From assembly GCF_001677475.2 (NCBI RefSeq), contig NZ_CP015229.1: 64,000 nucleotides of DNA; one strand, given 5' to 3'. Of this stretch, positions 19,039-58,527 are shown in pieces. The stretch is from Escherichia coli. GTDB lineage: Bacteria > Pseudomonadota > Gammaproteobacteria > Enterobacterales > Enterobacteriaceae. The translations under genes and the position numbers were made by a program. The notes under the pieces are model-generated. The model was not told the DNA's origin and did no database searches. It saw only the letters and a program-made list of their open reading frames with translations. Every line of letters begins with the position of its first letter. Positions within the stretch are counted from its first letter, which is position 1.

Positions 19039-20241
19039 ATGAGTTATGAAATTGCCGCAACGGGGCTGAATGCCGTTAACGAACAGCTGGACGGGATCAG
19101 TAACAACATCGCCAACGCCGGAACGGTGGGCTATAAGTCGATGACCACCCAGTTTTCCGCCATGTATGCCGGAAGTCAGGCGATGGGCGTCAGCGTGGCG
19201 GGCACCGCGCAAAGCATTTCGCGCGGCGGTTCGCTGGTCTCCACCGGTAACGCGCTCGATTTAGCGATTAACAACGATGGCTTTTTTGTTACCTGCGACA
19301 GCGCGGGCAACATTTCCTACACCCGCGCCGGATCGTTTGAAACCGACAAAAACGGCTATATCGTCAACGCCTCAGGCGCTTATTTGCAGGGCTACCCGGT
19401 CGATGACAGCGGCACTTTGCAAACCGGTACAGTCACAGATATCCAGATCAAAACCGGTAATATTCCGGCGCAGGCCAGCAGCAGCCTGACTTTTACCGCT
19501 AACTTCAACGCCAGCGATGAAGCTATCGACCGCACCACCGTACCGTTCGACCCGACCAACAGCAGCTCGTACACCGACAGCTACACCACCACGGTGTATG
19601 ACTCATTAGGCAACGAACATTCGGTATGCCAGTACTTCACCAAAACCAGCGATAACACCTGGGAAGTACAGTACACCTTCGACGGTCAGCAGCAGACCGG
19701 CGTTCCGGCGACGACGTTAACCTTCGACCCGAACACCGGGAAGCTGACTTCGCCAACCACGCCGCAGACCATTGAGTTTCAGACCGACGCAGCCGCACCC
19801 ATCGACTTAACCGTCGATTACTCGACCTGTACGCAATACGGCTCGGACTTCTCGGTCACCACCAACTCTGCCAACGGCTACGCTTCCGCGACTCAAAACG
19901 GTGTGCAGGTCGATGACGATGGCAAAGTTTACGCTACCTACAGCAACGGCGAGCGCATGTTGCAGGGGCAGGTGGTGCTGGCGACCTTCCCGAATGAAAA
20001 CGGCCTGGAGGCAGTGAGCGGCACCGCGTGGGTACAAACGGGCGAATCCGGCACCCCGCTGATTGGCGTTCCCGGCTCCGGCACCTGCGGCACGCTGTCG
20101 TCGGGCGTGCTCGAAAGCTCTAACGTCGATATCACCAGCGAACTGGTCAACCTGATGACCGCCCAGCGTAACTATCAGGCCAACACCAAAGTTATCGCTA
20201 CCAGCACGCAGCTCGATGACGCGCTGTTCCAGGCAATGTAA
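19039..20241 (+). CDS. lfgE: Flagellar hook protein FlgE homolog
   Basis: 400 aa; conserved flg N- and C-terminal helices. Confidence 0.85.
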   Translation: MSYEIAATGLNAVNEQLDGISNNIANAGTVGYKSMTTQFSAMYAGSQAMGVSVAGTAQSISRGGSLVSTGNALDLAINNDGFFVTCDSAGNISYTRAGSFETDKNGYIVNASGAYLQGYPVDDSGTLQTGTVTDIQIKTGNIPAQASSSLTFTANFNASDEAIDRTTVPFDPTNSSSYTDSYTTTVYDSLGNEHSVCQYFTKTSDNTWEVQYTFDGQQQTGVPATTLTFDPNTGKLTSPTTPQTIEFQTDAAAPIDLTVDYSTCTQYGSDFSVTTNSANGYASATQNGVQVDDDGKVYATYSNGERMLQGQVVLATFPNENGLEAVSGTAWVQTGESGTPLIGVPGSGTCGTLSSGVLESSNVDITSELVNLMTAQRNYQANTKVIATSTQLDDALFQAM

Positions 20242-26764: not shown

Positions 26765-27742
26765 ATGCAGGTCGGACTTACATCTTCATCACTCGCCACC
26801 GGCGGGGCGCATAGCGCTGCGGTATCGTCGTCAACCGTTGCGCCCACTCAGGCGGTGCGGCAAAAGCTCCCGGCGACGGCGAGTGAATATCCGGCCTCGC
26901 CGCTGATTACCACTCGCCCGCAGCGTTACAGCGTGCAGCTTAACGATCAGCTCACCACGTTGCAGCAGGCGGATCACTATCTCGGGCAACTGGAGCAGCA
27001 GTTGCTCGATTACCGTCACAGCCAGCGTAAGGGCGGGCAGGCGCAGAGTACGGCGCTGATGCAGATGCTGGACAAACGCACCGCGCTTTCCGGCGGTGCG
27101 GTGGACCGTCAGTTGCAGCCGGTGTTGCAGGGGGAAGCGCGGGTGACCTTTCACTCGCCGGATCTGGCGAGTCTGGTGCACAACCCCACGCCGGGAACGC
27201 GGATGTTCAGTGTCTCTGACGGGCGGCAGACCCAGCTTTCGGCGGTGATGCTGTCTGAGGATGACAGCGCTGGGCAGTACCAGACGCGGCTGACCAACGC
27301 CCTGCGCCGCGTGGGCGTGCAACTGCATCAGCAAGCGGACGGCATCAGCTTCTCCACCACTGAAAAACAGTGGCCCCATATCGAGCGCACCTTAAGCGTG
27401 CGCACCGATGGTGATAAGTCGGCGTTTATGCCGCTAAAAACCTTTGCCGAACCATCACAGGCGGACCGCTTTGCGCAAAGCCTGCAACAGGGTGGGGCGG
27501 GGATTTCCCAGACGTTAGAAGGCATTAATCAGCAGCGCGCGCAGATGGCGGTGCAGCAGGAAAAAGCCCGCCAGTTGATCGACGGCATGTCACGCTTCCC
27601 GCAAACGGAAAACGCGGTGCAGGCATCGGAGAACCTTGGCGGCGTGCTGGATAGCGCCAATCATAACTATCATGTTTTATTGCAGGCGGTGAACGGTCAG
27701 GCGCGAATTTCCAGCCAGACGGTGAGGAATTTATTGGGGTAA
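26765..27742 (+). CDS. lafW: Lateral flagellar protein LafW-like, function unknown
   Basis: 325 aa, Gln-rich; position after flgL homolog. Confidence 0.5.
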   Translation: MQVGLTSSSLATGGAHSAAVSSSTVAPTQAVRQKLPATASEYPASPLITTRPQRYSVQLNDQLTTLQQADHYLGQLEQQLLDYRHSQRKGGQAQSTALMQMLDKRTALSGGAVDRQLQPVLQGEARVTFHSPDLASLVHNPTPGTRMFSVSDGRQTQLSAVMLSEDDSAGQYQTRLTNALRRVGVQLHQQADGISFSTTEKQWPHIERTLSVRTDGDKSAFMPLKTFAEPSQADRFAQSLQQGGAGISQTLEGINQQRAQMAVQQEKARQLIDGMSRFPQTENAVQASENLGGVLDSANHNYHVLLQAVNGQARISSQTVRNLLG

Positions 27743-27747
27743 TTATC

Positions 27748-27788
27748 GGTTGGCCGGATAAGACGCCTTTAGCGTCGCATCCGGCATA
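27748..27788. repeat. REP palindromic unit
   Basis: ggccggataagacgcctttagcgtcgcatccggca. Confidence 0.75.
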
Positions 27789-27800
27789 TATTGGCACTTG

Positions 27801-28643
27801 TCAGCATTTCTGCACAGTATTTAACAACTTCTCTAAATTCTGATACATCGCGCTATTAATATCGCTGTTCTGCCACTCATCCACATTAAAGGTTAATTGC
27901 CAGCTGCCGTTGCACTGGTTACGCAGAACAATATCGCTTTCCAGTCGGTTACGAACATATTTATAATAGGTTGTCATTGTCATATTATGCGCTGACAATA
28001 AATTATCGAGTTTGTCTTTTCCTGGTGCAAGGGTTTGTGAAAGTAACGGTGCGGAGTTATTTTCTTTTCCAGAACTAAGATGAAATATTTTTATTCTTGG
28101 ACTGTTAATTGACTCTTTTACCAGTTGCGGGGCGTCAGGTGTATTTTTCAAGTGTGAATATCCCACGGTCGAGCCAATAAATATAACAGCTGCGGCTAAC
28201 GCTACCCCCATTATTCCTTTATGTTTTTTTCTAACAGGCACAGGCGGTGTTGTCGAAGATATCTCTTCTGGCACAGTTCCCTGTATCTGGTCGGTAATAA
28301 TCATCGCTTCTGCAGGCGATGACTCCGGCAAAGACACATACTCTTTATTGCACAAGTAACCTTTCTTCGGAATTGTTTTAATAATGTTCTGTTGTTTGCC
28401 ATCATCGTCGATAGCAACCCGCAACGCATGGATCGCCGTCGGCAGGCTGTTTCCGCCGACAATGCGGTTCTTCCATACTTCGGCACATAAATAAGATCGC
28501 GATAAAACCACATCGGCATTTTTTGCTAATGTTTCCAGCAAAATAAAATGGTATTCGCCGAGACGACGTGTTTCACCCGTTTCGCAATGTATTAAGGCAT
28601 TAAGCGACGGGTCCATCCGCCAGTTGTTGATAATAATACTCAT
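27801..28643 (-). CDS. lafZ: ToxR/CadC-like membrane-anchored transcriptional regulator (winged-helix DNA-binding domain + single TM)
   Basis: OmpR/PhoB-type wHTH-like N-term, TM segment GVALAAAVIFIGSTVGY; start set to internal ATG (MSIIINNW...). Confidence 0.6.
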   Translation of the reverse strand: MSIIINNWRMDPSLNALIHCETGETRRLGEYHFILLETLAKNADVVLSRSYLCAEVWKNRIVGGNSLPTAIHALRVAIDDDGKQQNIIKTIPKKGYLCNKEYVSLPESSPAEAMIITDQIQGTVPEEISSTTPPVPVRKKHKGIMGVALAAAVIFIGSTVGYSHLKNTPDAPQLVKESINSPRIKIFHLSSGKENNSAPLLSQTLAPGKDKLDNLLSAHNMTMTTYYKYVRNRLESDIVLRNQCNGSWQLTFNVDEWQNSDINSAMYQNLEKLLNTVQKC

Positions 28644-36369: not shown

Positions 36370-36407
36370 ATGCTGAATCTTTACGCATTTCTCAAACCCT
36401 GAAATCA

Positions 36408-36423
36408 CTGTATACTTTACCAG
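36408..36423 (+). promoter_or_regulatory. LexA (SOS) box upstream of dinB
   Basis: ctgtatactttaccag matches CTGT-N8-ACAG LexA operator. Confidence 0.8.
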
Positions 36424-36439
36424 TGTTGAGAGGTGAGCA

Positions 36440-37495
36440 ATGCGTAAAATCATTCATGTGGATATGGACTGCTTTTTCGCCGCGGTGGAGATGCGCGACA
36501 ATCCCGCCCTGCGCGATATCCCTATTGCTATTGGCGGCAGCCGCGAACGTCGGGGGGTGATCAGCACCGCCAATTATCCTGCGCGTAAATTTGGCGTACG
36601 TAGCGCTATGCCGACAGGGATGGCGCTCAAATTATGCCCACATCTCACCTTGCTTCCGGGGCGCTTTGACGCCTACAAAGAAGCCTCAAATCATATCCGT
36701 GAAATCTTCTCGCGCTACACCTCGCGCATTGAACCGTTGTCACTGGATGAAGCCTATCTCGATGTCACCGATAGCGTCCATTGCCACGGTTCTGCGACCC
36801 TCATCGCCCAGGAAATCCGCCAGACGATCTTCAACGAGCTGCAACTGACGGCGTCTGCGGGCGTGGCACCAGTAAAGTTTCTCGCCAAAATCGCCTCCGA
36901 CATGAATAAACCCAACGGCCAGTTTGTGATTACGCCGGCAGAAGTTCCGGCATTTTTACAAACCTTGCCGCTGGCAAAAATTCCCGGCGTCGGCAAAGTC
37001 TCGGCGGCAAAACTGGAAGCGATGGGGCTACGGACCTGCGGTGATGTGCAAAAGTGTGATCTGGTGATTCTGCTTAAACGCTTTGGCAAATTTGGCCGCA
37101 TTTTGTGGGAGCGTAGTCAGGGGATTGACGAGCGCGACGTTAACAGTGAACGGTTGCGAAAATCCGTCGGCGTGGAACGCACGATGGCGGAAGATATTCA
37201 TCACTGGTCTGAATGTGAAGCGATTATCGAGCGGCTGTATCCTGAACTTGAACGCCGTCTGGCAAAGGTAAAACCTGATTTACTGATTGCCCGCCAGGGG
37301 GTGAAATTAAAGTTCGATGATTTTCAGCAAACCACTCAGGAGCATGTCTGGCCGCGGCTGAATAAAGCTGACTTAATCGCCACCGCGCGTAAAACCTGGG
37401 ATGAACGCCGTGGCGGGCGCGGTGTGCGTCTGGTGGGGCTGCATGTGACGTTGCTTGACCCGCATATGGAAAGACAACTGGTGCTGGGATTATGA
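36440..37495 (+). CDS. dinB: DNA polymerase IV
   Basis: [23 protein letters not shown]-family polymerase N-terminus. Confidence 0.95.
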
Positions 37496-37546
37496 TGTAT
37501 ACTATTATGTCTATTCTGGTGTGCATTATTATGAGGGGATCACTGT

Positions 37547-37840
37547 ATGCATCGAATTCTCGCTGAAAAATCGGTCAATATCACTGAGTTACGTAAAAAC
37601 CCAGCTAAATACTTTATTGATCAACCGGTTGCGGTTCTTTCTAATAATCGCCCCGCAGGATATCTCTTAAGTGCCAGCGCATTTGAAGCGTTAATGGACA
37701 TGCTTGCTGAACAAGAGGAGAAAAAACTGGTGAAGGCGCGCTTCCGTCCGAGTGCCGCAAGATTAGAGGAAATTACACGCCGCGCTGAACAATATCTTAA
37801 TGATATGACGGATGATGATTTCAATGACTTTAAGGAATAA
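37547..37840 (+). CDS. yafN: Antitoxin YafN (Phd/YefM family)
   Basis: 97 aa, operon with yafO downstream of dinB. Confidence 0.85.
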   Translation: MHRILAEKSVNITELRKNPAKYFIDQPVAVLSNNRPAGYLLSASAFEALMDMLAEQEEKKLVKARFRPSAARLEEITRRAEQYLNDMTDDDFNDFKE

Positions 37841-37842
37841 GG

Positions 37843-38241
37843 ATGCGGGTATTCAAAACAAAACTTATTCGCCTGCAACTTACAGCAGAGGAACTTGATG
37901 CGTTAACGGCGGATTTTATTTCCTATAAGCGTGACGGTGTTTTGCCAGATATATTTGGTCGCGATGCACTCTACGACGACTCGTTTACCTGGCCATTAAT
38001 CAAATTTGAGCGAGTTGCTCATATTCATCTGGCAAATGTGAATAATCCATTTCCGTCACAGTTGCGCCAATTCAGCAGAACGAATGACGAAGCGCATTTG
38101 GTATATTGTCAGGGTGCGTTTGATGAGCAAGCATGGTTGCTCATTGCCATTCTGAAACCTGAACCTCATAAACTGGCTCGAGATAACAACCAAATGCATA
38201 AAATTGGGAAAATGGCAGAAGCGTTTCGCATGCGTTTTTGA
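37843..38241 (+). CDS. yafO: Toxin YafO (ribosome-dependent mRNA interferase)
   Basis: 132 aa immediately after yafN. Confidence 0.85.
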   Translation: MRVFKTKLIRLQLTAEELDALTADFISYKRDGVLPDIFGRDALYDDSFTWPLIKFERVAHIHLANVNNPFPSQLRQFSRTNDEAHLVYCQGAFDEQAWLLIAILKPEPHKLARDNNQMHKIGKMAEAFRMRF

Positions 38242-38250
38242 ATTTATATT

Positions 38251-38703
38251 ATGAATAACATACAAATAAGAAACTATCAGCCTGGCGATTTTCAGCAACT
38301 ATGCGCTATTTTCCTTAGAGCGGTTACGATGACCGCCAGTCAGCATTATTCACCACAACAAATTGCCGCCTGGGCGCAGATTGACGAATCTCGCTGGAAG
38401 GATAAACTCGCGAAATCACAAGTGCGGGTTGCCATCATTAATGCACAACCGGTTGGTTTTATTTCCCGCATTGAACATTATATCGATATGTTATTTGTTG
38501 ACCCTGAATACACCCGCCGTGGGGTTGCCAGCGCTTTGTTAAAACCTTTGATTAAGTCTGAATCCGAACTTACAGTGGACGCCAGCATAACCGCAAAACC
38601 ATTTTTTGAACGTTATGGTTTTCAGACAGTTAAGCAGCAGCGCGTTGAATGCCGGGGAGCGAGGTTTACTAATTTTTATATGCGTTATAAACAGCAACAT
38701 TAA
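38251..38703 (+). CDS. yafP: GNAT family N-acetyltransferase YafP
   Basis: 150 aa, acetyl-CoA binding motif (RRGVASALL). Confidence 0.85.
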   Translation: MNNIQIRNYQPGDFQQLCAIFLRAVTMTASQHYSPQQIAAWAQIDESRWKDKLAKSQVRVAIINAQPVGFISRIEHYIDMLFVDPEYTRRGVASALLKPLIKSESELTVDASITAKPFFERYGFQTVKQQRVECRGARFTNFYMRYKQQH

Positions 38704-38881
38704 ATCCAGCTTGCAATGAAAATAACGCCCGCCTAATATGTGCGCGTTTTGTTATTCCACAAACTGCAAGGAGGTAAATCATGACAAATCCTTTATCAAT
38801 GACTCTTTGCAGACCTTTCCAGGATTAATTCTTTTTTTTCTTGCCCTGGATCCGTCTGCCATTTCCTGATTTTTATATTTA

Positions 38882-39007
38882 TATACTCTAAATAATTCGA
38901 GTTGTAGGAAGGCGACAAGCGAGTGAATCCCTAGGAGCTTACGAAAGTAAGTGACTGGGGTGAACGAACGCAGTCGTAGTACATGCAACTTGAAGTATGA
39001 CGAGTAT
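38882..39007. repeat. ERIC (IRU) element
   Basis: Contains gtgaatccctaggagcttac and aagtaagtgactggggtgaacg (ERIC1R/ERIC2 primer sites); terminal inverted repeats atatactc/gagtata. Confidence 0.85.
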
Positions 39008-39009
39008 AA

Positions 39010-40161
39010 ATGGAATGGTACATGGGCAAATATATTCGTCCCTTATCCGATGCGGTATTTACCATCGCATCTGATGACCTGTGGATCGAGAGTTTAGCGA
39101 TCCAACAATTACACACCACGGCAAATTTACCCAACATGCATCGCGTAGTGGGGATGCCAGATTTACACCCCGGACGTGGCTACCCGATTGGCGCAGCGTT
39201 CTTCTCCGTAGGTCGTTTTTACCCGGCGCTGGTCGGCAATGATATCGGCTGCGGCATGGCGCTATGGCAAACAGATATTCTCGTGCGCAAGTACAACGCC
39301 GATAAGTTTGAAAAGCGATTATCAGCTTTGGATGACGTTGCTGAAGAAAGCTGGCTGGAGGAAAACCTGCCGTCAGCGTTTGCACTACATCCGTGGCGCA
39401 GCTCGCTTGGCTCCATCGGCGGTGGCAATCACTTCGCTGAACTGCAACAGATTGATCAAATTATCGACGCGGAACTGTTTGCACTGGCAGGTCTGGATGC
39501 GCAGCATCTGCAACTGCTGGTTCATAGCGGATCGCGTGGTCTGGGGCAGTCTGTTTTACAAAAACATATTTCCACATTCTCGCATCATGGTTTGCCGGAA
39601 GGCAGTGATGACGCGATGCGCTATATCGTGGAACATGACGATGCGCTGGCGTTTGCTCGCATTAATCGCCAGATGATCGCCCTGCGCATAATGCAACAGG
39701 TGAAGGCTACGGGAAGTCCGGTTCTGGATGTGGCGCATAACTTCATTACCGCGAGTAAAATTGGCGATCAACAAGGCTGGTTACACCGTAAAGGGGCTGC
39801 GCCAGATGACAGTGGCCTGGTGGTTATCCCCGGTTCACGCGGTGATTACTCATGGCTTGTACAGCCTGTCAGTAGCGAAGAAATATTGCATTCGCTGGCG
39901 CATGGGGCAGGACGTAAATGGGGGCGCACCGAGTGCAAAGGACGGCTGGCAGCGAAATACACGGCGACGCAACTTACGCGTACTGAACTTGGCAGCAGGG
40001 TAATTTGTCGCGATAAACAGCTCATCTTTGAAGAGGCGCCGCAGGCCTATAAATCGGCAGAAAGCGTGGTGCAATGTCTGGTGCAGGCCGGTTTAATTAT
40101 TCCTGTCGCGCGGCTGCGCCCGGTGCTGACACTCAAAAACAGTGGAGGGAAAAAAGGATGA
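39010..40161 (+). CDS. rtcB2: RtcB-family RNA ligase paralog coupled to prfH (RtcB2)
   Basis: 383 aa; RtcB-like metal-binding His/Cys residues ([28 protein letters not shown]); ATGA overlap with prfH. Confidence 0.8.
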
Positions 40162-40772
40162 TCTTGCTACAACTCTCCTCAGCCCAGGGACCGGAAGAAT
40201 GCTGCCTCGCAGTCAAAAAGGCGTTGGACAGGCTGATTAAAGAAGCATCCCAACAGCGTGTTGCGGTAACGGTGCTGGAGACAGAAACGGGCCGCTACTC
40301 TGATTCGCTGCGTTCAGCGCTGGTTTCTCTGGATGGCGACAACGCATGGGCATTAAGCGAAAGCTGGTGCGGCACTATTCAGTGGATTTGTCCGAGTCCG
40401 TATCGGCCTCATCATGGGCGCAAAAACTGGTTTCTGGGCATTGGGCGTTTTACCGCTGATGAGCAGGAACAATCGGATGCAATCCGTTATGAGACGCTGC
40501 GTTCGTCGGGGCCGGGCGGTCAACATGTCAATAAAACCGACTCGGCGGTACGCGCCACGCATCTGGCTACCGGAATTAGTGTGAAGGTTCAGTCAGAGCG
40601 CAGCCAGCATGCTAACAAACGGCTGGCGCGATTGCTGATCGCCTGGAAGCTGGAACAACAGCAACAGGAAAATAGCGCGGTGCTGAAATCGCAGCGGCGA
40701 ATGTTCCATCACCAGATTGAACGTGGCAACCCGCGACGGACATTTACAGGGATGGCTTTTATCGAAGGATAA
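40158..40772 (+). CDS. prfH: Peptide chain release factor homolog PrfH
   Basis: GGQ motif ([16 protein letters not shown]); ~204 aa from ATG 40158. Confidence 0.85.
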
Positions 40773-40784
40773 TGAAGGATGAAA

Positions 40785-40814
40785 CTGCCGGAAGGCGATT
40801 AAACGCCATCCGGC
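40785..40814. terminator. Candidate bidirectional terminator hairpin between prfH and pepD
   Basis: tgccgga...tccggca inverted repeat. Confidence 0.45.
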
Positions 40815-40828
40815 AGCAAATCAAATAA

Positions 40829-48664: not shown

Positions 48665-48740
48665 GCCGATATAGCTCAGTTGGTAGAGCAGCGCATTCGT
48701 AATGCGAAGGTCGTAGGTTCGACTCCTATTATCGGCACCA
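48665..48740 (+). tRNA. thrW: tRNA-Thr (anticodon CGU)
   Basis: gccgatatagctcagttggtagagcagcgcattcgtaatgcgaaggtcgtaggttcgactcctattatcggcacca; cloverleaf with CGT anticodon and CCA end. Confidence 0.95.
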
Positions 48741-48754
48741 TTTAAATCAATAAG

Positions 48755-48960
48755 TTACACATCATTAGTACCTTCCTTATTTCTTGACTGGGACAAATTT
48801 GGGACCGATGGGTTCAGAATCGAGTCTATTTGCCGTGCGTGTTCGGTAAGGTGATTAGGTGCGAGGTGAGCATATCGACGAACCATTTCAAGAGTTTCCC
48901 ATCCTCCCATTTCTGTAAGTGCAAGAAGAGAAACACTGGACTGAACCAGCCTGCTTGCCT
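48755..48960 (-). pseudogene. Tyrosine recombinase/integrase remnant (C-terminal fragment only)
   Basis: ORF encodes ...[36 protein letters not shown] (integrase C-terminus with catalytic Tyr) but lacks upstream catalytic domain; abuts thrW 3' end. Confidence 0.7.
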
Positions 48961-49103
48961 TTGCTATCAAAGTACCTTGAGGACCAGATGATTTCTGGCG
49001 ATATTTACAGCGCGTCCGCAATGAGTTTTTCTCCGTGCCGCCAGTGACGTTCCCCGCTTTTTCAGTGCGGCGATAATATCAGCGGGATGCCAGTCCTGTT
49101 GTG

Positions 49104-49574
49104 TCATACAACCACCTCGCTGATAAATTTTACGCCGTCGGCGGTGCGCAGCCAGCGCGGGGCTTTGAGTCCTTCCATGAAATACCAGACCAGTTCACAC
49201 AACAGCCCGGTCAGGGTTTGTTCCGTTTTTGGTTCCGCCGGGCGTTCCAGCAGAAGCTGGAGTAGTGCGAGGCAGTATTCGCACAAGGAATCTGGTTCGG
49301 AAATAAAGTGCTCTGGTGTGGCGGGAAGGGTATCAACGGTCAGGCTTTCAATCAGATGCGGCGGGATGGGGTCGTGCAGCGTGGGGTGCAATAGCGCAAG
49401 AGCCGCGTGAAGCCGTCCGCAGAGCGCTAGCCGTAGCGCGGGATCGTCGGTTTCGATCAGGGTTTCGGCGAAGCGGGCGCAGTAATCGGCAAGGACAGTA
49501 AAATCCGTGGTGGCATTGAAGGGGGCGGACAGCAGATCGAGTAAATCGCAGTCAGGGGTGAGGGTTGTAGCCAT
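49104..49574 (-). CDS. Hypothetical protein (island-encoded, unknown function)
   Basis: 156 aa from ATG 49572-49574 with upstream aggag RBS; no recognisable motif. Confidence 0.5.
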   Translation of the reverse strand: MATTLTPDCDLLDLLSAPFNATTDFTVLADYCARFAETLIETDDPALRLALCGRLHAALALLHPTLHDPIPPHLIESLTVDTLPATPEHFISEPDSLCEYCLALLQLLLERPAEPKTEQTLTGLLCELVWYFMEGLKAPRWLRTADGVKFISEVVV

Positions 49575-49917
49575 AGGGCGTCTCCTGTAACGGTTTATTA
49601 TGTCCGCCACTAGAGAGGCTAATCTCATGGGGGGCGGAACCGGACGGGGTTAGCCTTACCGGCGTTACAGGAAACCGGCGCGTCTTGCGACGCCCCCGCC
49701 CGGCCCGCCATTGAGGTGTAGCCGAACGCACGACACAAAAAAGACGCTGGTGCGTCAAGTGTCGCCTGTAACGGTTTTCAGGAGGCTAATCCCGACGCCT
49801 GATTTTGCAGGCGCGGGAGAAAGATACTGCGATTGGTCATGAGTGGCAAGGGCTACATCCTGTTTACCGACATCTCACGCAAAAATACCCTGATTATTAA
49901 TAGCGAAAATCAGTTTC

Positions 49918-52900
49918 TTATTTTGGCGGTAGCTTTTTGCGGTTCTTTGCCAATTGGAATCCTTCAGGTAACGGTTTGAATTTATCGCCGCCTTTAGGCC
50001 AGCGTTTTGCCCTGCTCTGAAATGCCCTTAACGAGTCGATATCCAGTGTTGCAGCGATCACAAAGTCATTATCGCCGCCCTTCACACGAGCAATATCACG
50101 CATAAAGGGTTCTTTTGCCGGGGAACGTACGCGACTATCGCCGTATTTTCGGTTATTCACTAAAATGGTATAGGCATGAATATCCAGCGCTGCTGATTCA
50201 ATCAACGATGCAAACGTATCCAGATCTTTATTCCAGCTCAATACCATTAATGCATCGAGCGCGCCCTGAAAACGGATCCTCGCTTTACTATTCTGGAGTT
50301 CAGAGCAAATCATAACGCCAAAATTGACGCCGTGATGAATATATACCGGCTTACGTTGTTTAACATTAAGTGTCGAGTCCCAAGACTTACCATAAGTTGA
50401 AAATAATGCCTCATCTTCACCTACGGCGGGTTCCAGCTTGGGTTGCCATATTTTGACACTCGCTGGATAGCCGAGTCTGTTATCTGAAAGGACAAGTACG
50501 GCCTCACTCTTCAGTTGATTATCGCCTAAGTGGCGGTATTCTGTTCCCGCAATTAGACTGATACCCGCCGAACTCAAACGATCAGCAATACTGTTAACCC
50601 AGCGTAACGGGATTGAAAGCTCGGGGAATAAAACATAATCAGGTTTAGGAGATAGTTTCAATGTTGCATTAACCAGTTCAGAAATCCGCTGGTACCTTGA
50701 ACGGGACAAGTTAGATTTATTGCAGGCCATTTTAGCCCAGTCGTCTTCCTCTGTTTTAATGCTGGTTAGCGCAACGACAATTTTATGTTTCCTGTCAGTG
50801 CCAATATGAATGAATTTCTTAGGCCGAGCTTTTTTTGTCGCTTCATCTGAGTCCTGCTCCGATGCTAGTAACGTCGGTTTGATCCATACACCGCGTAATG
50901 CTTGAGTATATTTTGCCCAAACGGTGGACGGTCTCTCATCTGGTTTTTTGTCGGATGTAGAGGGTAATCCAACACATTCGGGGGCCAGTTCTGATATTTC
51001 AGCGGGAGTTAAAGGACGTGTAGGGAAAATGTAAGGTAGGTAACTTTCGTTCTTACGATTTCCTTTAGCCACTTTTTCCAGTCGGGTATTCTTGGTTGAT
51101 TTCAAAAATAGCTTAATAACGTCAATATCAATAAGCGATGAGTCCCTCATTAATTTCAGTATTTTAACTTCTTTTTTACGATCACGCTGATTAACAAGTT
51201 TTTCTGCCGACTGACTCTTTACGATCTGTTTATAAGGTTCCTTTGCTAAATCAGCTCGAGCTACCAATGGCGCTTTTAAATAAAAATCTGCTGAATCAAA
51301 GCGAAGATCCAGTAAATCCTTTAGATTTGTCAGACTTTGTGAAATATGATTAAAAAATGTATCCGCAAGGCACTCTTCTTTCTTTGAACGTTTATCAAGA
51401 AATAATCTGTCAGGACTGTAATATCGTGTCGCTGCATCAACAAATAGCCAGCTTAATGTGCCTTTTATACAGCGCCAAAGATCATTTACTGCTCGAGTTT
51501 TGCAACCATTTATAGTCACTTCCTTACCTGAAGTAATCACCGATGCCAACAGGTTGATGGACTCGTAAGCTTTAAGTACAATTTTTTCCGCGTGCTGCCA
51601 TTCATTCATACTGATAGCAAAGCCAAGCAGCCTTGGCAGATAACTAAAATGTGCAAATAGATTATCAGCCCTAAGAATATGGTTGTAGGCAAACTGATAA
51701 AACTCTTCCCGCTGTTCTTTCCATTCACTTGGAGACAGATCTCGTGCCAGTGTTTCAACGTAGCGTAATTGCAGTGACCAGCCCAAACGACGAATGGTTA
51801 ATCCATCCGCACGGCGCAGAGTATCGGCATTTTCACCTACACTACCGGCAGCGGAAAGGACTTTAGCTGCGGTGGAGTGTTCCAGTTGATCCGGTGAAGG
51901 CATCAAGCGGTGTTCACTAGAAAGCTCGTAGATCTCCTTTTCGATACTGTCGAGCAGATCTATTCCTGCCCTCCCTTGAAGCACGAAAAGTTTTTGCTTA
52001 TCGGATTGTAACTGGATGGTGGTCTTACCCTGGAAATGCTCGCCCTGCTGTATTTGCCATATTTGTTTTTTCTCGTTTTTCAGATAAACGCAATCATTGC
52101 CAAGCCTATCTTGCAGCAATAACATAAATTCGTGATTATTAGTAATTTTACCTGTATCGCGTATTACAAGGAACATATCATCGACATAACGACCGTAGTG
52201 AATTGGCGACAGTTTTTCAATGACTAATTTATCCCAATGGTGTAGCAATATATTGGAAATGATCCGACTGGCTGTTAATCCAATGACCAGACCACCATTA
52301 ATAACAGGTGTTTTGTACGCTATTTTTTTTCCAAATGCCGCTGCGCCGTCAGACCAGTGCTTTAAGAATACAGCTAACTGTGCAGTAAACGCTTTTTCAT
52401 GCTCAGTCAGTTTTATGTTTAGTGTGTTATAGAGATCATCAGAGGTTATAGCCAGTGGATCAATAAAATGATAGTAACTTTTTAAATCCAGTGAGGCGGC
52501 GATAATGTCACGATCTTTTTCCAACTCGTCACGTATAGCTTTTAAGCCATCACCACGCCATTTTTGGTAGGGCTGGAAATAGGGGCTAAAAGAACCCACG
52601 GCACTGATATGGAATGGATTATCCTGCTCATTGCTAAATAATTCATCATTACGAATACGTTTTAGCCGCGCGCCATAACAACAGTTGTCTAAGCTGGCAT
52701 CAAATTTATGCCCGACCATATTAATCCATAGTGCAGAGATAATGTGACTATCAACCGGGAAGTCACCAATAATACGAAACTCTGGTATCAGATCAAAATT
52801 ATTAAATAAATGGTCGGCTGCTCGTTTAGGATTAGAAAAGTGGACGTGTCCATTTTGGAATTCATGTTTTTTCTTTGTGGTTAATTTTTTCGGTAACAAA

Positions 52901-57701: not shown

Positions 57702-57752
57702 GGCTCATGATATAATTTTTAAGACATGATCAAGAAGCACGTTTATTTATTC

Positions 57753-57880
57753 ATATACTCTAAATAATTCAAGTTGCAGGAAGGCGACAAGTGAGTGAAT
57801 CCCCAGGAGCTTACAAAAGTAAGTGACTGGGGTGAATGAACGCAGTCGCAGCACATGCAACTTGAAGTATGACGAGTATA
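57753..57880. repeat. ERIC (IRU) element, second copy
   Basis: gtgaatccccaggagcttac and aagtaagtgactggggtgaatg; ~90% identical to copy at 38882. Confidence 0.85.
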
Positions 57881-58527
57881 ATTATCATTATTATGGCCAT
57901 GGAATACCTGACAAATGACGCTACCCCAACCTTCTGTACCAGTCGTTCTGCTAATTCTACCGATGCTTCGGTCTGGAGTGGTAGAGTAATATTAGACACA
58001 GTTTTATTTTCTCTCTTTTTCGAGGGCTGTATATGAACAGGAAGAATACATCCCTAAGCGGTTAATGCTGGCGTAATCAATAGACCAGCATTAATCACAG
58101 ATGATTATCAATCAGACAGAAATGGTTAAATCGTCGAATTCATAATTAATACTTTTTGTAACGCCGCTGAATAGCTTGAAAAGGATGTATATTTTAAATA
58201 TCAGTGAAGTGAACAGTTTATTGCCGTTATTAATAGAAATGGAGGAATAAATACGCGTATTCTACTATTGCAACAAAAACAACGATATTGATCATTTTTC
58301 ATAATGAAGTAACCTGACAGATATAAAAATGTTGATTGAGGCTAAATGCCCGGATGAAGGTTGTCGAGGGAGCCAGGTTGTTTTTTCTTTTGGATGATCT
58401 CCATTGCTGGATAGTCCCCTTGTACAGATAAGTCTGCTCTTTCTCGCTCAAAGCAGACCCTGGAATTGAACGCAGAGTGACTACCTGACACAATATTGCA
58501 CCGTGAAGAGTCGGTCGTTGTTAACGT

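Follow-up and report, generated by a model that had tools for sequence, protein, structure and literature searches.

In E. coli K-12, dinB is followed by yafN, yafO and yafP; PMC2814082 and PMC3105422, citing McKenzie 2003, describe the four genes as a cotranscribed operon under LexA control, and for dinB a dependence on RpoS has been reported too (PMC3105422). For the K-12 alleles, the toxicity of YafO, its neutralisation by YafN, an autoregulated promoter and Lon-dependent activation have been described (PMC2814082). This second promoter, defined by primer extension and lacZ fusions, lies directly upstream of yafN, is repressed by YafN and needs Lon for its activation. It is not SOS-responsive: SOS induction of yafNO comes solely from the dinB promoter, and deletion of the latter abolishes induction of yafNO by mitomycin C (PMC2814082). 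YafP is SOS-induced, and modulates the toxicity of 4-NQO and nitrofurazone (PMC3105422). E. fergusonii has been reported to possess the four-gene form of the operon, which is regarded as ancestral (PMC3105422).

We are highly confident that the window, i.e. the whole 64,000-nucleotide stretch of E. coli DNA analysed here, contains the canonical Escherichia dinB-yafN-yafO-yafP SOS operon, intact and in its four-gene form. This operon is already known and well studied, and the locus is an ordinary one, explained by the existing literature. Its open reading frames are the following:

36440-37495, + strand: dinB
37547-37840, + strand: yafN
37843-38241, + strand: yafO
38251-38703, + strand: yafP

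Intergenic gaps are 51 bp (dinB-yafN), 2 bp (yafN-yafO) and 9 bp (yafO-yafP), all four genes being on the + strand, in agreement with the tightly spaced, co-oriented arrangement that a first, sequence-only reading of this DNA had described. The operon is flanked by an intact Flag-2 cluster with a complete lafU, from which a 70-bp spacer separates dinB, and by an intact rtcB2-prfH pair, 306 bp beyond yafP. All four proteins exceed the curated NCBIfam equivalog and Pfam cut-offs, which upholds the gene identities proposed earlier, and the RefSeq annotation of the best-matching genomes gives the identical set of four genes. The closest of 5426 complete E. coli genomes is 98.0% identical at this region, and 97.6% identical in core genes.

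DinB (351 aa, DNA polymerase IV) matched NCBIfam NF002677 with 545 bits (cut-off 256). It contains the PF00817 (IMS) and PF11799 (IMS_C) domains and two HHH domains (PF11798 and PF21999), and is nearly identical to the solved E. coli Pol IV, PDB 4ir1 (E = 9e-236). Its translation includes D8, D103 and E104, the catalytic acidic residues of E. coli Pol IV, F13, its steric gate, Y79, and a C-terminal QLVLGL, its clamp-binding motif. A Shine-Dalgarno sequence, GAGAGG, precedes the gene. At the other end of the operon, YafP (150 aa, GNAT N-acetyltransferase) matched the equivalog NF007338 (319 bits, against 146) and the Pfam families Acetyltransf_10, _7 and _1 (PF13673, 69 bits against 23.6), and is related to PDB 2fiw (E = 3.6e-15). 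Its start codon lies 9 nt past the yafO stop codon, with no evident Shine-Dalgarno sequence.

The two middle genes have the layout of a type II toxin-antitoxin pair: they are small and adjacent, the antitoxin comes first, and yafO begins 2 nt past the yafN stop codon. YafN (97 aa) matched the antitoxin equivalog NF007300 (194 bits, against 99), and as it also passes the cut-off of PhdYeFM_antitox, PF02604 (32.6 bits against 29.8), its description as a Phd-type antitoxin is justified. YafO (132 aa), with an intact reading frame, matched the endoribonuclease family NF007377 (245 bits, against 153) and PF13957, YafO_toxin (E = 6.3e-39). The term mRNA interferase, used in the first reading, is appropriate for YafO, although its ribosome dependence is disputed (PMC8546651). 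A Pfam grouping cited in PMC11980606 places YafO among the RelE/ParE (BECR-fold) toxins. Searches of PDB sequences with YafN and YafO as queries found no relatives. By analogy with the K-12 alleles, from which each protein differs by 2 residues, the YafN and YafO encoded in the window probably function as a toxin-antitoxin pair.

Two features of the lafU-dinB spacer bear on SOS control:

36406-36425, strand not assigned: LexA (SOS) box CACTGTATACTTTACCAGTG, an exact match, with its CTG-N10-CAG core at 36408-36423
36389-36416, + strand: predicted dinB promoter, with -35 TTCTCA at 36389-36394, a 16-nt spacer and -10 TATACT at 36411-36416

The LexA box announced by the sequence-only reading was found as an exact 16-mer, CTGTATACTTTACCAG, unique in the window (+ strand, 36408-36423), 16 nt upstream of the dinB start codon, and present in 0 of 100 dinucleotide-preserving shuffles. 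The 20-mer, which ends 14 nt ahead of the dinB ATG at 36440, has the CTG-N10-CAG core and AT-rich centre of LexA operators, and resembles TACTG(TA)5CAGTA. The predicted promoter (score 9/12) is the sole sigma-70-like match upstream of the start codon in this spacer, and its -10 hexamer falls within the box.

We consider it next to impossible that the 16-mer is a chance match, devoid of regulatory role in the source strain, even if some of the statistics could be read that way. The loose consensus CTGT-N8-ACAG, with at most one mismatch, has 28 matches in the window against 16.8 expected, so that this consensus alone proves nothing. On an approximate weight matrix, compiled from 26 further LexA boxes of E. 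coli, the dinB box scores 15.2 bits (training boxes 13.1-28.0, median 20.2) and ranks second among the ~64,000 window positions. Of 200 shuffled windows, 16 reached a top score of at least 16.5, that of the window; taken by itself, the matrix score therefore lacks significance across 64 kb. Against a chance match, however, the site is the K-12 dinB operator, it overlaps the -10 of the sole suitable promoter, and we infer a chance of only ~1e-3 for such a site in any given 70-bp spacer. Only one other window position reaches the score of the dinB box, inside a Flag-2 coding region, and the ~1e-3 estimate follows from this. The two other high matrix matches, at 2561 (Flag-2 export gene) and 42714 (gpt), both within coding sequence, were dismissed as chance.

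Conservation argues in the same direction. Over all its 70 bp the spacer matches that of K-12 at 100% identity; the divergence of the box beyond function, for which the first reading had proposed to look by alignment, was not seen. The 20-bp box is unvaried in 10 out of 10 Escherichia sequences in which neighbouring bases vary, and 5413 of the 5426 complete E. coli genomes contain a 60-bp segment around it with at least 95% identity. A degenerate pattern of the box, CACTGTAT-N5-ACCAGTG-N2-GAGAGG, scanned over GTDB species genomes, matched two loci alone, both in non-coli Escherichia species that are among the ten sequences. Their overall identity is 93-95%, yet the box is unchanged even at its five central bases, which the pattern left free. 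A broad cross-species footprint was not obtained with this pattern among the GTDB species genomes. A literature search for a table of LexA boxes or heterology indices yielded the consensus and the concept, but not the dinB box sequence.

With DNA identical or nearly identical to that of K-12, the source strain probably resembles K-12 in LexA binding, in transcription start and in cotranscription. A LexA dimer on the box would then block RNA polymerase; upon DNA damage, active RecA would trigger LexA self-cleavage, and one transcript of the four genes would be made. The dinB box may be a weak operator, since it scores towards the low end among known boxes, and a weak box would fit the high basal Pol IV level and early induction that have been reported.

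The sequence-only reading had placed all four genes under one SOS promoter. As far as the SOS input is concerned, this stands, the dinB promoter being its source; it is incomplete for yafNO, which in K-12 also has the second, YafN-autoregulated promoter (PMC2814082). The corresponding stretch of the window is:

37489-37546, + strand: end of dinB and 51-bp dinB-yafN spacer, corresponding to the K-12 proximal yafNO promoter stretch

Within it, a 21-nt sequence is imperfectly repeated in direct orientation (37489-37509 and 37513-37533), and there is a palindrome, GTATAC. The spacer differs from K-12 at positions 37511 and 37538, both differences being common to other natural strains. A putative LexA box has been proposed at the yafNO promoter (PMC2814082); we rejected this candidate, no 20-mer in 37470-37560 scoring above -5.5 bits on the LexA matrix, nor any above -4.5 bits in the K-12 counterpart. 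Such sub-zero scores agree with the reported lack of an SOS response at the proximal promoter (PMC2814082).

Could dinB be a monocistronic SOS gene, and yafN-yafO, with or without yafP, an independent unit driven by its own promoter only and escaping SOS control? The proximal promoter known from K-12 (PMC2814082), promoter-like hexamers at 37467-37496, the 51-bp spacer and the GC content, which drops from 54% to 43% starting from the dinB stop codon, would be compatible with such a split. Yet no terminator-like site was found in the dinB-yafN spacer, the candidate LexA-like sequence of the spacer scores below zero, and in K-12 mitomycin C induction of yafNO is lost with the dinB promoter (PMC2814082). 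Moreover, the overlap of dinB and yafP at ATGA in two-gene strains requires cotranscription (PMC3105422). All this makes two independent units very unlikely, and favours a single SOS operon with a second input into yafNO. In this operon, the promoter located at the 3' end of dinB and in the spacer would be repressed by YafN and would fire when Lon removes YafN, as cells starve for amino acids or translation is arrested; YafO, once free, would cleave mRNA and slow translation. For YafP, the probable substrates are genotoxic compounds or derivatives of these, whose acetylation may alter the lesions to be bypassed by Pol IV.

A terminator search within and after the operon gave no candidate that beats shuffled sequence. 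This includes a hairpin followed by a T-run at the yafO 3' end (38216-38240), which could lower read-through into yafP. Downstream of yafP lies one further hairpin:

38724-38756, + strand: weak candidate terminator, hairpin AACGCCCGC...GCGCGUU, then UUGUUAUU

Its folding energy is -8.3 kcal/mol (z = -1.56), 13 of 200 shuffles fold as well, and a pattern scan for terminators did not report it; it is a putative terminator at most. Further downstream, the sole Rfam match was a sub-threshold hit to V_AS5 at 38881-39004, which corresponds to an ERIC repeat.

We then compared the operon among E. coli genomes. Most of the four-gene stretch is present in 2835 of the 5416 complete genomes with a match, and in the sampled genomes that lack the full stretch, dinB is joined to yafP at ATGA. 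Two short repeats frame the missing part:

37489-37495, + strand: left direct repeat ATTATGA, spanning the dinB stop codon
38248-38254, + strand: right direct repeat ATTATGA, spanning the yafP start codon

In two-gene strains the dinB-yafP junction is exactly at ...GGGATTATGAATAAC..., identical to the junction given in PMC3105422, and the window retains the 759-bp interval between the repeats. The yafN-yafO pair is thus an accessory, dispensable cassette, lost by deletion between the ATTATGA repeats. Decay of another kind was seen in CFSAN061770, where yafO has an internal stop, and in Escherichia sp. E1V33, where yafO is deleted and an orphan yafN is left. As to composition, GC content is 54% in dinB and 42.5-43.3% in yafN, yafO and yafP: these three genes are an AT-rich block attached behind dinB.

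Such observations raise the possibility that yafNO is a selfish, dispensable addiction cassette, its SOS induction being a by-product without adaptive role. Its presence in about half of the matching genomes, its natural decay in the two strains above and its AT-rich composition all point that way, and Gutierrez et al. call the role of yafNO in recovery from genotoxic stress unclear (PMC3105422). Conversely, the four-gene form of E. fergusonii is taken as ancestral (PMC3105422), and the pair is intact in the diverged lineage of the window, with two amino-acid changes in each protein relative to K-12. We regard a selfish cassette as possible, though less likely than not. It should be added that this reading concerns the purpose of the pair, and is compatible with the operon as described above.

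The sequence-only reading had also counted the operon towards the density of stress and defence genes between Flag-2 and rtcB2-prfH. The defence part of this statement is not supported, as PADLOC gives nothing meaningful for the four proteins: no PADLOC-DB model matches DinB, YafO or YafP, and YafN obtains a noise-level match to Csm4 (E = 0.0026). In favour of yafNO being an anti-phage (abortive infection) module, some toxins of the RelE/ParE superfamily are discussed as defence toxins (PMC11980606), and other stress-related genes, rtcB2-prfH, are next door. Besides the PADLOC result, however, the literature examined reports no phage phenotype for yafNO, and we deem a defence module highly improbable.

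A bolder scenario, also very unlikely, is that the AT-rich yafN-yafO-yafP block would have been acquired horizontally and would have captured the dinB SOS promoter, with a real function for damage-triggered YafO in those lineages that keep the block. If so, translation shutdown by YafO might for instance abort the induction of SOS-responsive prophages or limit phage spread, and the ATTATGA repeats would let lineages discard the cassette repeatedly.

Beyond correct annotation, the importance of the locus is small. It shows that a lineage at about 2% divergence from every complete RefSeq E. coli genome keeps the full four-gene operon, with the LexA operator unchanged. It also offers natural examples of a toxin-antitoxin pair under dual control, by SOS read-through and by an autoregulated promoter of its own, of a presence/absence polymorphism via deletion between short direct repeats, and of an AT-rich three-gene block behind dinB.

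How does the locus compare with known systems? In K-12 (b0231-b0234), the same four genes are found in the same order and on the same strand, with the same spacings of 51, 2 and 9 bp, and promoter and operator are base-for-base equal, so that this was rightly called known biology. Over 2,500 aligned bases of the operon there are 54 differences, or ~2% nucleotide divergence. At the protein level, differences amount to 2 residues in DinB (M210I and Q342H), 2 in YafN, which has L61 and V62 in the window and is identical to that of strain GMF065, 2 in YafO (E66V and P72S) and 6 in YafP; DinB Q342H, YafO P72S and YafP W138R are absent from all compared strains. The flanks differ too: lfhA, lafU, ykfJ and prfH are pseudogenes in K-12, whereas the window flanks are intact. 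A two-gene dinB-yafP operon with the same LexA box is found in CFT073 and in roughly half of E. coli strains (PMC3105422); this form is devoid of yafN-yafO, and its dinB and yafP overlap at ATGA, unlike those of the window.

Compared with pairs of the yefM-yoeB type, yafNO shares the antitoxin-first order, the short gap, the Phd/YefM N-terminal domain and an mRNA-cleaving toxin. The cleavage pattern of YafO is unlike that of the core RelE toxins (PMC8546651). YafO differs from toxins of the yefM-yoeB type by its own Pfam family, PF13957, and by its weak similarity to RelE. Other E. coli toxin loci, namely dinJ-yafQ, symE, tisB and hokE, are likewise reported to be SOS-induced or part of the SOS regulon (listed in PMC2814082, where SOS induction is the sole basis of the grouping). 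In these loci, a LexA box is present at the promoter of the locus itself; unlike them, yafNO is under SOS control by read-through from the dinB promoter alone.

The dinB-yafN-yafO-yafP operon is already known, and in the window it consists of four co-oriented, closely set genes, for which the coordinates and description of the sequence-only reading proved correct:

36440-37495, + strand, dinB, ORF of 351 aa
37547-37840, + strand, yafN, ORF of 97 aa
37843-38241, + strand, yafO, ORF of 132 aa
38251-38703, + strand, yafP, ORF of 150 aa

Intergenic gaps are, in order, 51, 2 and 9 bp. All four gene identities hold, each protein passing curated cut-offs. DinB has four Y-family domains and equivalog NF002677, matches the solved Pol IV structure with E = 9e-236, and its translation contains D8, D103, E104, F13 and Y79 as well as the C-terminal QLVLGL. 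YafN was assigned to PF02604 (Phd/YefM) and NF007300, YafO to PF13957 and NF007377, and YafP to GNAT domains and NF007338; RefSeq annotation under the best-matching genomes gives the same four genes. The product name of YafN in NF007300 and RefSeq, “type I toxin-antitoxin system antitoxin YafN”, contains a misnomer that is propagating through RefSeq: YafN is a type II protein antitoxin. Because yafO starts 2 nt past yafN, and yafP starts 9 nt past yafO without evident Shine-Dalgarno, we infer that the three genes are translationally coupled. A search for terminators within the operon found no convincing one. At the yafO 3' end (38216-38240), just ahead of the yafP start, a 9-bp hairpin stands before a T-run. 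It does not outperform shuffled sequence (z = -0.56), and if genuine it might dampen expression of yafP where all four genes are present.

The LexA box claimed before dinB is present as an exact + strand 16-mer, CTGTATACTTTACCAG (36408-36423). It lies within the 70-bp spacer that separates the lafU stop (36369) from the dinB ATG (36440), and its flanks extend it to the 20-mer CACTGTATACTTTACCAGTG (36406-36425). The 16-mer occurs once in the window and in none of 100 dinucleotide-preserving shuffles. The loose consensus CTGT-N8-ACAG with one mismatch allowed is uninformative alone (28 matches in the window, 16.8 expected). A symmetric weight matrix was built from 26 other E. coli LexA boxes (attributed to Lewis 1994 and Fernandez de Henestrosa 2000), with the dinB box left out. 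On this approximate matrix, the dinB site scores 15.2 bits, second among the ~64,000 window positions; this is in the lower part of the training range (13.1-28.0, median 20.2), so that it is a weak box. The top score of the window was matched in 16 of 200 shuffled windows, and the matrix score by itself is therefore non-significant over 64 kb. Two further comparable matches, at 2561 (Flag-2 export gene) and 42714 (gpt), both lie within coding sequence. That the dinB box is a chance match is excluded by its identity to K-12, its conservation in the Escherichia sequences compared and its position in the promoter. Upon alignment with K-12 the box is undiverged, the whole 70-bp spacer being 100% identical, and the 20-bp box is invariant in 8 E. 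coli-like sequences and 2 non-coli Escherichia species (overall identity to the window 93-95%), with variation at nearby positions. The site contains the -10 hexamer TATACT (36411-36416) of the sole suitable sigma-70-like promoter predicted in the spacer (-35 TTCTCA, 16-nt spacing). Of 5426 complete E. coli genomes, 5413 carry the 60-bp promoter segment (36386-36445, -35 hexamer through ATG), at ≥95% identity in every matching genome and without any difference in 2215 records. The segment also matches 15 plasmid places in this collection; these plasmids may be F-prime-like, carrying the chromosomal region.

The sequence-only reading placed all four genes under one SOS promoter. SOS induction of yafNO does need the dinB promoter, but K-12 has a second promoter upstream of yafN (PMC2814082). 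Its start site was mapped directly before yafN by Christensen-Dalsgaard et al., who showed that YafN represses this promoter and that chloramphenicol or starvation activates it in a Lon-dependent way (PMC2814082). When the K-12 dinB promoter was deleted, mitomycin C induction of yafNO was lost (PMC2814082), a result which, together with the lack of a terminator, contradicts the view that dinB and yafN-yafO(-yafP) are independent transcription units. The “putative LexA box” noted by the same authors in the dinB-yafN spacer (PMC2814082) scores below zero on our approximate matrix, in agreement with the deletion result. The spacer differs between K-12 and the window at two positions, 37511 and 37538, and both window variants are also present in other natural strains. 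An imperfect 21-nt direct repeat at 37489-37533, whose copies ATTATGATGTATACTATTATG and ATTCTGGTGTGCATTATTATG share 76% identity at a distance of 24 nt, and a palindrome GTATAC in the spacer are possible YafN operator elements.

The yafN-yafO pair is accessory. Most of the four-gene stretch is present in 2835 of the 5416 genomes with a match, and sampled remaining genomes have dinB fused to yafP at the junction ...GGGATTATGAATAAC..., described earlier by Gutierrez et al. (PMC3105422). This two-gene form is a deletion between two ATTATGA copies, both kept in the window (37489-37495 and 38248-38254). At the dinB stop codon there is an abrupt shift in composition, from 54% GC and 58% GC3 in dinB to 42.5-43.3% GC and 38-40% GC3 in the three downstream genes. 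This drop suggests that yafN, yafO and yafP share a foreign origin and were acquired together, rather than the toxin-antitoxin pair alone. Natural decay of the operon is also seen in other strains. Escherichia sp. E1V33 has a three-gene form, in which only the first ~25 bases of yafO remain and the part matching window 37868-38241 is deleted, leaving an orphan yafN between dinB and yafP. In CFSAN061770, the yafO frame (19039-19437 of that sequence) is interrupted by a stop at codon 66, where the window encodes Val and K-12 Glu. In isolate 323_BP0014, dinB (1641-2686 of that sequence) is frameshifted. A selfish, functionless yafN-yafO cassette is compatible with the presence/absence polymorphism and with the yafO stop and deletion seen elsewhere; such a reading bears on the purpose of the pair, and leaves the operon description untouched. 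An anti-phage role of the pair receives no support from PADLOC.

The anatomy of the operon consists of an operator placed over the -10 hexamer and of four intact, coupled genes that no convincing terminator interrupts. For the steps beyond it, we infer from K-12 that LexA would occlude the dinB promoter, and that RecA-stimulated LexA cleavage would release the four-gene transcript. Lon would degrade YafN, freeing YafO to cleave mRNA; the ribosome dependence of YafO is disputed (PMC8546651). Nitroaromatic genotoxins modified by YafP would produce lesions that become Pol IV substrates.

Other features were observed in the window. An ERIC-type repeat lies between yafP and rtcB2 (38877-39005), with 1 and 3 mismatches to the ERIC2 and ERIC1R primer sequences. 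It is sub-threshold for Rfam V_AS5 (42.6 bits versus 96), is absent from this site in CFSAN061770, and has a second, 92% identical copy at 57742-57881. The window lacks two elements of CFSAN061770, a RelE/ParE toxin and HTH antitoxin pair inside Flag-2 (27738-27801) and a metal-dependent hydrolase with a hypothetical gene after prfH (40764-40826). The rtcB2-prfH segment (39006-40764) is unusually divergent, being just 91.8% identical to CFSAN061770, against 95.2% and 98.4% for the flanking segments. At ~48665-52000 (coordinates carried over from a matching sequence), remnants of an integrase and of HTH genes come after a tRNA-Thr gene, together with a large gene on the minus strand that is annotated as RNA-directed DNA polymerase in the best-matching E. 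coli strain; the arrangement resembles a reverse transcriptase-bearing island at thrW.

The interpretation of the sequence-only reading is supported, with the refinements of two promoters, accessory yafN-yafO and a composition change. None of 5426 complete RefSeq E. coli genomes is the source of the window: the highest identity reached is 98.0% for the operon, 97.6% for the pepD-proA core genes and 95.2% for 24 kb including Flag-2, and the window lineage is probably just outside sampled E. coli. Relative to K-12, alignment over b0230-b0234 gives 54 differences in 2,500 bases; DinB, YafN and YafO differ by 2 residues each and YafP by 6, and DinB H342, YafO S72 and YafP R138 are in none of the compared strains. 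Whereas the operon is flanked by pseudogenes in K-12, lafU and rtcB2-prfH are intact in the window, which keeps in undeleted form a region eroded in K-12.
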